From a phage: 64,000 bases of DNA. The stretch lies in sequence record PX104378.1; one strand, written 5' to 3'. Position 1 is the stretch's first letter. Every line of letters starts with the position of its first letter. Positions 33,435-35,624 of this stretch are shown here, one piece after another. The position numbers were made by a program, and so were the translations under genes. The notes under the pieces are model-generated. The model saw only the letters and a program-made list of their open reading frames with translations. It did not search any database and was not told where the DNA came from.

Positions 33435-33626
33435 TTAGATTCCGGCGATCCTGCATAGATTTCTTGTATTAGCACCAATCAGGATCGCATTAACGACAAC
33501 CATTCCCCAATCAACCAACTGATTATTATAAATGCTAAACCCGTTTGCAAGACCAAATACAAGCATTCCGGTACACATACTCAGAGCAATAATCAACATC
33601 ACGGTAAAACCAAATGCAAATTTCAT
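33435..33626 (-). CDS. small hydrophobic protein (63 aa)
   Basis: Two predicted TM segments. Confidence 0.4.
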   Translation of the reverse strand: MKFAFGFTVMLIIALSMCTGMLVFGLANGFSIYNNQLVDWGMVVVNAILIGANTRNLCRIAGI

Positions 33627-33627
33627 A

Positions 33628-33843
33628 TTATTTTCCTTTTCTCTGTTTACGTTTATAAAAGTAATACATTACCTCATCACGTCCGGTGATCCAACATGCT
33701 ATGGCAGTAAACAGGTTTACAATTCCCAACACACCTACTGACGCGGCGCTGTCAACAGACATAGGAACAGTAAAGGCCATAGCTAACATAGCAACGCCAC
33801 AAATGACATTAAGCACCATTATAATAAGACCGAAGAAAACCAT
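33628..33843 (-). CDS. small hydrophobic protein (71 aa)
   Basis: Start at ATG 33843 after GGAGGATTGACA RBS; TM segments. Confidence 0.4.
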   Translation of the reverse strand: MVFFGLIIMVLNVICGVAMLAMAFTVPMSVDSAASVGVLGIVNLFTAIACWITGRDEVMYYFYKRKQRKGK

Positions 33844-33845
33844 TG

Positions 33846-34025
33846 TCAATCCTCCGACACAAGAAAACCAACAATCACGCCAGTGATAAGACATGATGCG
33901 CCGCTAATCAGACAACCCGCACCAAGTGATTCCCACCAGATCAGAGAAGCGACAATAACACAGAATCCCCATACTACCGCAATCACAACATAGGCAAGGG
34001 TCGCCCAAAACATATATTTGTTCAT
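33846..34025 (-). CDS. small hydrophobic protein (~59 aa)
   Basis: TM segments; internal ATG at 34025 chosen. Confidence 0.35.
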   Translation of the reverse strand: MNKYMFWATLAYVVIAVVWGFCVIVASLIWWESLGAGCLISGASCLITGVIVGFLVSED

Positions 34026-34210
34026 AATAAATCCCATTCACCAATCAAATATGAAAATAGCCAAATAAACAGAAACGAGGCGATTGATCCGGCAAACAAA
34101 ATGATATTAGAGAATCCGCCGTCTATCCAGGCGACAAAACAGAATACGCCAGTATAGAAGCATAAACCCATTACAAAGCATACTATAAGCAACCATAGAC
34201 AAAACGCCAT
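34022..34210 (-). CDS. small hydrophobic protein (62 aa)
   Basis: ATG after GGAGGG RBS; TM segments. Confidence 0.4.
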   Translation of the reverse strand: MAFCLWLLIVCFVMGLCFYTGVFCFVAWIDGGFSNIILFAGSIASFLFIWLFSYLIGEWDLL

Positions 34211-34432
34211 AGAAAGCCCTCCAGTGAGCTAATTTAGTGCGGGTAGTACATTACCCTACCCGCATTGTTAATCATCGCAGAGCGTGTTCTAGAACGATTC
34301 CACACCAACCGCTAACCACACCCAAACACACAGCAACAAGCAGATTCATTCGGTCTTTTGGAATCATCGCAAACAGAACAACACCCACACAGAAAGCCAT
34401 TACCATTGAAGTTAACATTTGTTCAACCATTA

Positions 34433-34771
34433 TCACACCTTTAAAGTCATAGACGCATAAACATTAATGCCAGGCCAGTTAGGATCGCAATTATACTCAA
34501 CATCCCACAAATAAAGCGGTTTAGATGTATCAGCCAAGTTTTTAAAATCTTCTACCCACATTTCAAGGCTATATGATGGATAAACTAGGCTGTCATATCC
34601 TCCGTAACGTTGGCCTACTGGTCGGTCAGTAAAAACTACATCAAGATCCGGTAATTCTTTTTCAAGGATAACCGCCAGCGCATAAATCAGACGGTCTTCC
34701 TTGTTACGCTGCCGTAGGACCGTTGTCAGTTGGTTTTTCTGGTTCACTAGCAAGCACCTCCACATTTTCAC
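34433..34771 (-). CDS. hypothetical protein (start uncertain)
   Basis: Overlaps upstream ORF by 68 nt; may start further downstream. Confidence 0.35.
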   Translation of the reverse strand: MKMWRCLLVNQKNQLTTVLRQRNKEDRLIYALAVILEKELPDLDVVFTDRPVGQRYGGYDSLVYPSYSLEMWVEDFKNLADTSKPLYLWDVEYNCDPNWPGINVYASMTLKV

Positions 34772-35024
34772 AGAATGAAATTTTCACAGACACAATTTTA
34801 CCATAAGTGAAGAATGAATATACATTATCGAGATATTCAACGTCACCTACAATCACATCAAACTGCGGATCAGCAACCGCCGCAACATATTCTACCAGTT
34901 CATCAAGAGAATGCAACTTAATTTCATCAATTCGGCTGTATTTGGTTGCATCTTTGATTTTAAAACCACGTTGTTTCAGCTTATCAATTAGAATTTCACG
35001 CGGAGTTTCAAACAGTTTGCTCAT
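34704..35024 (-). CDS. hypothetical protein (106 aa)
   Basis: ATG after GAGGATTATATT RBS. Confidence 0.5.
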   Translation of the reverse strand: MSKLFETPREILIDKLKQRGFKIKDATKYSRIDEIKLHSLDELVEYVAAVADPQFDVIVGDVEYLDNVYSFFTYGKIVSVKISFCENVEVLASEPEKPTDNGPTAA

Positions 35025-35045
35025 AATATAATCCTCACATTAAAT

Positions 35046-35246
35046 CTAAAATTTGTTAACGACGAATTGCATAATTAGACTAATCACAAACATTGCAAAC
35101 CAAGTATAAATGCAACAGATAAAAGCTACATACAATTCAATCTGGTCAGAGAATACACCGGGTAAAAGCATTAGCAAAATAACAACAGTAAAGACGCTAG
35201 CGATACCCGCAACAAAACCAATATCATTTTTACTAATCGTCATCAA
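35046..35246 (-). CDS. small hydrophobic protein (66 aa)
   Basis: TM segments. Confidence 0.4.
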   Translation of the reverse strand: MMTISKNDIGFVAGIASVFTVVILLMLLPGVFSDQIELYVAFICCIYTWFAMFVISLIMQFVVNKF

Positions 35247-35452
35247 GTCACCGTTTTGTAAAGAAACACAATAAAATCCAAGACAAGAAAGACAGTGTAA
35301 ATGATCATCGTCAAGACAGTAAACACTGTCAAATTTTCATCGTTAGTTAATTCATAGTCGCCCATCCATACAATCACAAGATATAGCATTGAAAGAATGG
35401 AAGCACCTACGAAGTTAAAAAACATATTCTTGAGCGTCATATTAACAACCAT
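35243..35452 (-). CDS. small hydrophobic protein (69 aa)
   Basis: TM segments. Confidence 0.4.
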   Translation of the reverse strand: MVVNMTLKNMFFNFVGASILSMLYLVIVWMGDYELTNDENLTVFTVLTMIIYTVFLVLDFIVFLYKTVT

Positions 35453-35624
35453 CGCGGCTTAAGTCAACAGCAATTGCATACAGCATAATGAATATGCTAG
35501 CAGATCCGAGAATCAATGCACCCTCACATTTTGAAACTCGCTCATCAAAATGTAACATTATCCATCCGAGGATGTTAAAGGCGCAGACCGCGCCTATGTT
35601 CTCTAACCAATTAATCTTTTTCAT
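35442..35624 (-). CDS. small hydrophobic protein (60 aa)
   Basis: TM segments. Confidence 0.4.
   Translation of the reverse strand: MKKINWLENIGAVCAFNILGWIMLHFDERVSKCEGALILGSASIFIMLYAIAVDLSRDGC

Follow-up and report, generated by a model that had tools for sequence, protein, structure and literature searches.

What purpose is served by the runs of small hydrophobic open reading frames (ORFs) that lie directly before the endolysin gene of Krischvirus phages, and do they belong to the lysis machinery? The question arises from a 64,000-nt stretch of phage DNA (sequence record PX104378.1), referred to here as the window. An earlier inspection of its letters (the original prediction) had noticed an array of small hydrophobic proteins at 33435-35624 beside an endolysin gene and a second run nearby, and had proposed holin/antiholin, spanin-like or membrane-targeted host-takeover proteins as candidates. 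We favour, with moderate confidence, an interpretation of the last kind, in which both arrays are batteries of early, genus-restricted accessory inner-membrane proteins involved in host takeover, superinfection exclusion and/or anti-defence; they are probably not lysis machinery.

Megablast of region 33000-38600 assigned the window to Krischvirus (RB49/Phi1-like T4-type coliphages; Straboviridae). The region was matched by 59 phage records with 90-99% identity, all of them Krischvirus (RB49, Phi1, JSE, GEC-3S etc.), and the top matches showed 97.7% identity across the full query. Gene names follow Phi1, where array 1 corresponds to ORF103-ORF112 and array 2 to ORF118-ORF124.

Organization of the two arrays

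The minus strand carries every gene from position 1 to about 43,800. Array 1 (33435-35624, minus strand) contains ten tiled ORFs: eight are hydrophobic, with 52-71 amino acids (aa) and a grand average of hydropathicity (GRAVY) of +0.7 to +1.75, and two are soluble, in a layout of five hydrophobic, two soluble and three hydrophobic ORFs. The tiled hydrophobic run was therefore present as had been predicted, and its coordinates, strand and place immediately upstream (in transcription) of the endolysin gene at 33017-33406 were correct; however, instead of seven consecutive ORFs of about 60-90 aa there are eight of 52-71 aa, split by ORF108 and ORF109. The earlier sizes were too large because the longest ORFs had been used, and shorter starts for ORF104, ORF105, ORF107, ORF110 and ORF111 were taken from PHROG profiles and published annotations. 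Array 1 and its adjacent genes are listed in order of transcription, with the ratio of nonsynonymous to synonymous substitution rates (dN/dS) for some of them:

35633..35959, minus strand: ORF113, soluble, 108 aa, LPD25 domain (Pfam PF18840, 53.7 bits), first gene of the operon, dN/dS 0.10-0.16
35442..35624, minus strand: ORF112, 60 aa, one strong and one weak transmembrane segment, phrog_16425, dN/dS 0.22
35243..35440, minus strand: ORF111, 65 aa (69 aa from the start at 35452), predicted two-helix hairpin
35046..35243, minus strand: ORF110, 65 aa, predicted two-helix hairpin
34704..35024, minus strand: ORF109, soluble, 106 aa, breaks the hydrophobic run, dN/dS 0.05-0.13
34433..34747, minus strand: ORF108, soluble, 104 aa, dN/dS 0.02-0.17
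34272..34430, minus strand: ORF107, 52 aa, predicted two-helix hairpin
34022..34210, minus strand: ORF106, 62 aa, predicted two-helix hairpin
33846..34025, minus strand: ORF105, 59 aa, predicted two-helix hairpin
33628..33843, minus strand: ORF104, 71 aa, predicted two-helix hairpin with a conserved basic C-terminal tail, YKRKQRKGK
33435..33626, minus strand: ORF103, 63 aa, one strong and one weak transmembrane segment, directly before the endolysin gene
33017..33406, minus strand: endolysin (M15 family peptidase), Pfam Peptidase_M15_4, PHROG endolysin, downstream in the same transcription unit

The two soluble genes, ORF109 and ORF108, share 44 nt (34704-34747) in different frames. Neither of them shows a family match (Pfam; their PHROGs are unnamed), and AlphaFold2, run on the single sequence of ORF109, gave a model with a predicted local distance difference test (pLDDT) score of 58, insufficient for a fold search. 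This overlapping pair is under strong purifying selection, with dN/dS of 0.02-0.17.

The second run, described as five to six similar ORFs at 37213-38483, was confirmed and consists of ORF118-122 (37213-38122), the antitoxin gene dmd and ORF124, although ORF121 is doubtful:

38325..38483, minus strand: ORF124, 52 aa, hydrophobic, Gly-rich, one to two transmembrane segments
38112..38315, minus strand: dmd (antitoxin, discriminator of mRNA degradation), Pfam PF17587, embedded in array 2
37925..38122, minus strand: ORF122, 65 aa, predicted two-helix hairpin, among the least constrained members (dN/dS 0.54-0.62)
37828..37956, minus strand: ORF121, 42 aa in the window, doubtful gene
37607..37831, minus strand: ORF120, 74 aa, predicted two-helix hairpin with a basic C-terminal tail
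37428..37610, minus strand: ORF119, 60 aa, predicted two-helix hairpin with a charged tail
37213..37431, minus strand: ORF118, 72 aa, two hydrophobic segments and a strongly basic C-terminal tail

ORF118 starts with an invariant Met-Lys-Met. ORF121 has a GTG start, lacks a Shine-Dalgarno sequence and shows a 10-nt indel in relation to other genomes. This indel is a deletion in the window when 11 of the other 12 close genomes are compared, the alignment with JSE being only partial there, and it alters the N-terminal reading frame and the start of an ORF of 29-42 aa.

Membrane character and clustering of the array ORFs

Hydrophobicity and topology were analysed with a simple Kyte-Doolittle window scan and a positive-inside script, not with a trained predictor. 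One or two transmembrane segments had been predicted for each ORF, and this topology check agrees, with two hydrophobic segments in 13 of the 14 array ORFs. The predicted orientation is mostly N-in/C-in and the periplasmic loops have 2-9 aa. Basic cytoplasmic C-terminal tails are present only in ORF104, ORF118, ORF119 and ORF120; ORF105-107, ORF110, ORF111 and ORF122 have none, and ORF103, ORF112 and ORF124 show one or two basic residues. Gly-rich, GxxxG-like stretches are found in ORF105 and ORF124. Furthermore, 11 of the array ORFs were named "putative membrane protein" by the depositors of phage W115, whose methods describe the use of TMHMM to detect transmembrane ORFs. The AlphaFold2 model of ORF104 is a helical hairpin (H2-25 and H30-69, pLDDT 76), and in BFVD, Foldseek matched this model only to the Phi1 ortholog of ORF104 and to non-specific hairpins. 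These models suggest that the array proteins insert in the membrane with the predicted topology.

Among the 102 annotated Phi1 genes analysed (43 kb), 14 of the 16 with a GRAVY above 0.4 are grouped within 22 consecutive genes. An arrangement of this kind has a hypergeometric probability of P = 5e-10 (4e-8 after correction for window position), so the clustering goes far beyond chance. The 164-kb Phi1 genome has about five other annotated small hydrophobic genes (ORF018, ORF046, ORF088, ORF167 and ORF270), and the arrays hold 14 of the approximately 19 such genes phage-wide. The hydrophobic genes show an excess of T at codon positions 1 and 2; however, T at fourfold-degenerate sites is alike in hydrophobic and soluble genes (0.417 against 0.409). 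A compositional effect was therefore rejected, and the T-richness is attributed to selection on amino acids.

Coding evidence, conservation and allelic variation

Judged by comparison between genomes, the array ORFs are real coding genes under purifying selection, with ORF121 as the doubtful member. Variable sites in the window and 12 close genomes are mostly located at third codon positions. The summed ratio of nonsynonymous to synonymous polymorphism (pN/pS) across these 13 genomes ranges from 0.04 to 0.62 in the annotated frame, whereas the other two frames mostly give about 1 or more; ORF110 had too few variable sites for an estimate. As a comparison, pN/pS is 0.24 in the endolysin gene and 0.22 in dmd. 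Pairwise dN/dS in relation to the window, calculated for two divergent relatives (dS 0.2-1.2), ranges between 0.08 and 0.59, with most members at 0.1-0.3. The exception is ORF124, which reaches 0.95 against one relative (L097) at a dS of 0.115.

The array is syntenic in 18 genomes. A search with ORF104 also found divergent metagenome-assembled relatives of 170-175 kb (79-86% identity in ORF104), which keep all members of both arrays in the same order and with nearly the same lengths. Most array ORFs have a Shine-Dalgarno sequence, and the stop and start codons of most neighbouring ORFs overlap or are 1-2 nt apart. Some tails and loops are strongly conserved, such as the C-terminal tail of ORF104 and the WDIVEN motif of ORF118. 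Nonsynonymous change is 2.4 times faster in the hydrophobic ORFs than in their soluble neighbours at similar dS, with a mean dN of 0.137 and 0.056, respectively (Mann-Whitney P = 0.004).

Two members are broken in some isolates: three of the 13 close genomes have a disrupted ORF106, and ORF111 carries a frameshift in W115 and JK32 and is missing from JSE-type genomes. In JSE, Makalu, SSG23 and Whisky, one gene of 64-66 aa replaces both ORF110 and ORF111, and this gene is a full-length ORF110 allele (32-34% identity, E = 5e-10). The divergent lineages carry either the JSE-type ORF110 allele or one with 72% identity, together with ORF111. At least three ORF110 allele classes (100%, about 72% and about 32-35% identity) are found among genomes that are otherwise 93-98% identical. 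Shigella phage JK32 shows a 300-bp tandem duplication (L090 4123-4577; window 34061-34360) which creates a second, chimeric ORF106. It could be a real local duplication or an assembly artefact, and a similar two-piece match was found in phage Skers.

Homology searches

The original prediction had stated that none of the proteins is recognisable by sequence, and all searches bore this out. Each array ORF belongs to its own small, unnamed PHROG of unknown function. No array ORF was above the cutoff in Pfam (searched at E <= 1), where the best holin-like match, between ORF104 and Phage_holin_3_5, reached 15 bits (E = 0.029; cutoff 27), and none had a match in PADLOC; in addition, no Rfam family was found in 31000-40000. 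When both arrays were compared by tblastn with 50,697 phage records, only the 59 Krischvirus records matched. ORF104 and ORF118 found only Krischvirus-like relatives (>= 79-82% identity) in a word-indexed search of 5.8 billion clustered proteins, and an exhaustive HMMER profile search with ORF104 against 1.84 billion representatives returned its own cluster and a fragment only.

The array ORFs are also unrelated to one another. All-against-all blastp and phmmer comparison of the 14 ORFs and three other hydrophobic ORFs of Phi1 found no paralogy, the sole relationship being that of ORF110 with the JSE-type replacement gene, and the array as a tandem-duplicated family was rejected on this basis. 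By phmmer, the array ORFs are unrelated to T4 Imm, Sp, RI, e.2-e.4 and trna.4. The sequences are already public in 59 GenBank records as "hypothetical protein" or "putative membrane protein", and a literature search for the membrane character, function, transcriptomics, proteomics or genetics of the cluster found none.

Transcription signals

A consensus scan identified sigma-70 promoters with 11 of 12 matching positions at 36030-36002, 36740-36712, 37009-36981 and 38994-38966. All scanned promoters lie in intergenic gaps on the coding strand, and these sites, like the terminators listed below, are annotated in GEC-3S. The signals that delimit the operons, as well as a stem-loop inside array 1, are the following:

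36002..36030, minus strand: putative early sigma-70 promoter of the array 1 operon, TTGACA-17-CATAAT, 11/12, annotated in GEC-3S
34238..34264, minus strand: stem-loop between ORF107 and ORF106, -21.2 kcal/mol (61-nt segment folded), z = -3.6
31877..31901, minus strand: strong predicted intrinsic terminator at the end of the array 1 operon, after vs.8, ORF100 and vs.6
38516..38544, minus strand: putative early promoter of the array 2 operon, 10/12 match
37042..37063, minus strand: strong predicted intrinsic terminator at the end of the array 2 operon
39031-39011, minus strand: predicted intrinsic terminator, strong

The array 1 operon would run from the promoter at 36030 through ORF113, ORF112-110, ORF109/108, ORF107-103, the endolysin gene, vs.8, ORF100 and vs.6 to the terminator, and the array 2 operon from the promoter at 38544 through ORF124, dmd and ORF122-118 to its terminator. 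The type of promoter suggests that both arrays are expressed early. Furthermore, GGAG, the RegB cleavage motif, lies within several array Shine-Dalgarno sequences and the phage encodes regB; according to the T4 regB annotation, RegB cleaves a subset of T4 mRNAs at GGAG. The presence of this motif would fit a transient early expression.

The exact T4 late-promoter motif, TATAAATA, occurs four times in the 64 kb (27015, 37214, 43553 and 54362). The copy at 27015 is just upstream of rI, and the one at 37214, the only exact match in the array region, lies within the 3' end of ORF118 and precedes the terminator; no exact TATAAATA is found upstream of either array or of the endolysin gene. Across the window, TATAAATA-like octamers (up to one mismatch) are depleted, with 79 observed in relation to 136 +/- 11 expected and higher counts in 100 of 100 shuffles, a deficit that would fit if spurious late promoters were selected against.

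A 60-nt cassette occurs three times (35981-36040, 36960-37019 and 38945-39004), each time with one of the 11/12 promoters, among them that of array 1. Its copies are 70-100% identical and share a conserved leader, on the coding strand, ACACCCATCGAAACGAAACAC; the promoter of array 2 does not belong to this repeat. The cassette matches the mobile promoter-early/stem-loop (PeSL) elements that were described in RB49 and phi1 (Arbiol et al. 2010, PMC2839356). The PeSL and ORFan cassettes of that study resemble the present locus, since in the same phages an ORFan-rich region is punctuated by repeated early-promoter/stem-loop cassettes. However, they show one PeSL per ORFan, whereas here each promoter serves 7-15 genes, and PeSL regions are shuffled, whereas here the gene content is stable across the genus. 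The study mentions neither "transmembrane" nor ORF103-124 (PMC2839356).

In the stem-loop at 34238-34264, the stem (GCGGGTA/TACCCGC) is nearly invariant, with one substitution, in RB49, and the loop of 9-11 nt is hypervariable and different in nearly every lineage (seven genomes). As no T-tract follows, it is not a classical terminator, and it may be an element for mRNA stabilisation or processing, or the relic of a PeSL stem-loop.

The endolysin gene and the lysis functions of the phage

In Phi1, the only match of T4 lysozyme e is the tail-lysozyme domain of gp5, and the M15 peptidase is therefore regarded as the soluble endolysin. Its translation start lies in a predicted RNA structure:

33400..33437, minus strand: conserved RNA hairpin in which the Shine-Dalgarno sequence and AUG of the endolysin gene are base-paired with a segment that overlaps the stop codon of ORF103

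This hairpin (-12.3 kcal/mol, z = -4.2) is formed by the 28-nt spacer between ORF103 and the endolysin gene together with the first endolysin codons, and the paired Shine-Dalgarno sequence is GGGGGUGA. The spacer is identical in 18 of 18 genomes save one A/G position at the ATG, even where the dS of the endolysin gene is about 0.8, and in one divergent lineage a change in codon 3 lengthens the helix (-17.5 kcal/mol). The 5' arm holds TCTAAATA, one mismatch from the late-promoter consensus. In T4, the ribosome-binding site of e is reportedly masked in early transcripts, and the hairpin looks like an analogous masking on a non-homologous endolysin. From its predicted fold, it appears to mask endolysin translation and to uncouple the endolysin from the upstream ORFs; if functional, the endolysin would be translated on a different schedule from them.

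The window encodes a T4-type RI antiholin (26679-26981; Pfam PF24205, 83 bits), which adjoins rI.-1 and whose gene is preceded by a perfect TATAAATA late promoter motif. In Phi1, the t holin gene is found after gene 37, and pseT.2/pseT.3, in T4 the spanin pair, are also present. No array ORF matched the RI antiholin family (Pfam and phmmer) or a curated holin family at threshold (Pfam; the PHROGs are of unknown function). Inspection by eye found no lipobox (L-[ASTVI]-[GAS]-C) in the array ORFs, the L-S-M-C of ORF103 being non-conforming, and the array ORFs do not have the architecture of an i-spanin, since they have at most 74 aa and predicted periplasmic loops of 2-9 aa. A spanin role is therefore not supported, as there is neither a lipobox nor a periplasmic domain and Phi1 has pseT.2/pseT.3. 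A co-acquired lysis cassette was also rejected: when the proteins of the locus were compared by tblastn with 79 phage loci that have a 52-67% identical M15 endolysin, only the endolysin was shared and no small-ORF homolog was found beside it.

Alternative explanations

With RI, t and pseT.2/pseT.3 present and with early promoters before the arrays, the holin, antiholin and spanin candidates of the original prediction were not supported. A broader lysis-related function would make the array proteins class II holin- or pinholin-like, or else antiholins or modulators of the T holin, tuning lysis together with the M15 endolysin, with ORF103, ORF104 and ORF118 as candidates. Class II holins and pinholins, such as S21-68 of phage 21, have about 60-75 aa, two transmembrane helices in an N-in/C-in orientation and a basic C-terminal tail; they sometimes show a dual start of the Met-Lys-Met type, and their gene lies beside the endolysin gene. 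This architecture is matched by ORF104 and ORF118. Holin-like topology and dual starts had been named as signs of such a role, and two helices with a basic or charged tail are found in ORF104, ORF118, ORF119 and ORF120 and the invariant, dual-start-like Met-Lys-Met in ORF118, but the likeness stops at resemblance. The place of ORF103 and ORF104 immediately upstream of the endolysin gene, the sub-threshold match of ORF104 to Phage_holin_3_5 and the lack of an annotated rIII gene in Phi1 would also fit. However, class II holins have late promoters, whereas the arrays have early sigma-70 promoters without a late promoter motif before them, no membership in a holin family at threshold and only non-specific hairpins in Foldseek, in a phage that already has homologs of the T holin, RI and the spanins; furthermore, no homologs were found beside the endolysins of the 79 other loci, and a holin made in the first minutes would be expected to kill the host too soon. 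We consider a part in lysis improbable. Slightly less credit is given to membrane-perturbing host shut-off peptides, similar to type I toxins, which would partially depolarise or permeabilise the inner membrane without specific targets. Short, very hydrophobic hairpins, the Gly-rich, GxxxG-like stretches of ORF105 and ORF124 and the early expression signals speak for them; however, a generic effect needs no fourteen different sequences, and the conserved polar and charged residues and tails suggest specific contacts. In addition, the phage itself needs an energised membrane until lysis, as is established for T4.

An equally small chance is left to proto-genes, small ORFs born only recently and perhaps de novo in a hyperplastic region, most of them with a marginal or no specific function; hydrophobic hairpins would be what arises most easily from a T-rich coding strand. 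The ORFs are strict orphans (ORF104 among 1.84 billion representatives, ORF118 in the 5.8-billion-protein set) without paralogy among the 14, the genome-wide background is T-rich at fourfold-degenerate sites (about 41% T), ORF106 and ORF111 are occasionally pseudogenised, ORF121 is unstable and ORF122 is weakly constrained. Against this, all ORFs but ORF121 are intact and in order at dS up to about 1.2, most dN/dS values are 0.1-0.3, the T excess of the hydrophobic genes is at codon positions 1 and 2 with none at fourfold sites, and the ORF104 tail and the ORF118 WDIVEN are highly conserved. The constant order of the whole set across the genus and the overlapping or nearly adjacent stop and start codons of most neighbours could also be explained by translationally coupled subunits of one hetero-oligomeric membrane complex, to which we assign an even lower probability: there are viable isolates with ORF106 or ORF111 broken, or ORF111 absent, ORF110 alleles with 35% identity are swapped without matching changes in their neighbours, and tight gene packing is the norm for T4 early genes. 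That the ORFs are spurious and lie in non-coding or regulatory DNA is highly implausible. They are short, have no database family, and ORF106, ORF108 and ORF121-122 are skipped by several annotation pipelines; however, purifying selection is frame-specific, variation is mostly at third positions, most ORFs have a Shine-Dalgarno sequence and they are intact at dS up to 1.2. With the exception of ORF121, pN/pS and dN/dS effectively refute this explanation.

A proposed role in the inner membrane early in infection

Of the candidates put forward originally, membrane-targeted host-takeover proteins are the option that fits the early promoters and the early/accessory gene neighbourhood, and we return here to the preferred reading of the arrays as early accessory inner-membrane proteins. 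Both arrays would be transcribed by the host RNA polymerase from strong sigma-70 promoters soon after infection, and their tightly packed, partly overlapping ORFs translated into helical hairpins of 52-74 aa. The hairpins would insert in the Escherichia coli inner membrane, mostly N-in/C-in, with 2-9 residues in the periplasm, and four of them would expose a basic tail to the cytoplasm. With almost nothing predicted to protrude from the bilayer, their most likely site of action is its interior, where they might associate with transmembrane helices of proteins from the host or from an incoming phage, or change the properties of the membrane. We infer that the likeliest roles are takeover of the host membrane, superinfection exclusion, as functional analogues of the T4 Imm that this genus lacks, and/or the countering of membrane-based defences. 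The endolysin gene would merely share the early transcript, its translation being masked by the RNA hairpin.

T4 Imm is the product of an early gene and has 83 aa, two hydrophobic segments and a charged C-terminal tail, the same architecture as ORF104, ORF118 and ORF120. However, phmmer of Imm against the 14 ORFs gave E >= 0.17, none of them matched the Pfam family of T4 Imm (Imm_superinfect) at E <= 1, and T4 imm lies between genes 42 and 43, a position different from that of the arrays. By tblastn of the Phi1 genome, T4 Imm had no match and the match of Sp was spurious, and T4 Dmd and gp61.1 were found. HK97 gp15 and P22 SieA are small phage membrane proteins that act on the host envelope or block entry. 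PhiNM1 Gp11 is a further small early phage membrane protein of this kind, targeting host envelope machinery or blocking entry (PMC11237401). All three are small, early products that act on host inner-membrane processes or exclude other phages, as is proposed here for the array proteins, but they have no homology with them and come from unrelated phages and hosts, so the analogy is only functional.

Array 2 lies in an inferred operon with the antitoxin gene dmd and adjoins Acb1/57B. The product of 57B (39038-39508) is a clear Acb1, an anti-CBASS phosphodiesterase (Pfam, 174 bits), and dmd (38112-38315) is relocated from its T4 position next to gene 41. The presence of Acb1 and dmd here and of ipI at the same locus in T4 suggests that this interval is an anti-defence hotspot of T4-type phages. 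The pointers to exclusion or anti-defence, namely the lack of detectable imm and sp, the Imm-like architecture, the dmd and Acb1 neighbours, ipI at this locus in T4, the fast evolution and the ORF110 dimorphism, are circumstantial.

A bolder version, which we regard as rather unlikely, is a membrane toolkit of about a dozen unrelated hairpins, each neutralising a different inner-membrane target. Such targets would be the routes by which competing phages enter, defence effectors anchored in the membrane, or transporters and division proteins of the host. In a variant of this reading, the locus would show a "transmembrane-first" birth of new phage genes that were then fixed by selection.

Several points weigh against the interpretation that we favour. 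No experiment or homology ties any array ORF to a function, and the literature gave no transcriptomic, proteomic or genetic data for the locus. The promoters are consensus matches and depositor annotation, and the topology was derived with a simple script based on hydrophobicity and the positive-inside rule. As ORF106 and ORF111 are pseudogenes in some isolates, individual members are dispensable. The fast protein evolution can reflect only the tolerance of transmembrane helices to substitution, the adjacency of dmd and Acb1 is guilt by association, and fourteen different exclusion or anti-defence proteins are much to postulate.

Comparison with the T4 interval and other features of the window

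The locus is flanked by 57B/57A/1/3/2 on one side and by vs.8/vs.6/nrdC.11/regB on the other, and the syntenic T4 interval contains ipI, the tRNA cluster, e.8-e.2, nudE, e, ipIII, ipII and denV. Hyperplastic regions of T4-type genomes are rich in ORFans and variable (PMC2839356), and the array locus is one such ORFan-rich, variable part of a T4-type genome. T4 e.2, e.3, e.4 and trna.4 lie consecutively in the same interval (57B to endolysin/vs.8), upstream of the lysozyme gene, with one predicted transmembrane segment in e.2 and two in each of e.3, e.4 and trna.4 (61 aa). As in the arrays, they are early-region ORFs of uncharacterised function; however, they are not homologous to them (phmmer E >= 0.01 in a 21-sequence database), and T4 has four such genes of 61-130 aa whereas the Krischvirus locus has 14 of 42-74 aa. 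Given these positional analogues, the arrays represent a denser version of a known phenomenon and not a new kind of system: they are an ordinary feature of a T4-type hyperplastic region, though an unusually dense one.

Outside the array region, an ORF of 722 aa (24126-26294, minus strand), directly downstream of rI.-1, shows a weak Ig-domain match. At this position Phi1 has the gp38 adhesin and ORF080-084.1, and the divergent metagenomic relatives have a protein of about 706-715 aa. The 722-aa ORF may be an alternative adhesin or host-range module.

Significance for Krischvirus biology

If the proposed role were false, the result would still be a clean negative, as hydrophobicity and adjacency to an endolysin gene would be no ground for a holin or spanin annotation. 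If it is true, the locus would provide about 13 small intramembrane binders of 52-74 aa, none of them related to another, which could reveal new ways for phages to disable host inner-membrane proteins, defence effectors or rival phages. It would also answer how Krischviruses without imm and sp achieve superinfection exclusion, and, as these phages are used in phage-therapy cocktails, proteins for exclusion or host range would be of practical relevance. In its toolkit form, if true, the locus would parallel the anti-defence islands, with the membrane as its field of action, and would account for the superinfection exclusion of RB49-like phages without Imm or Sp.

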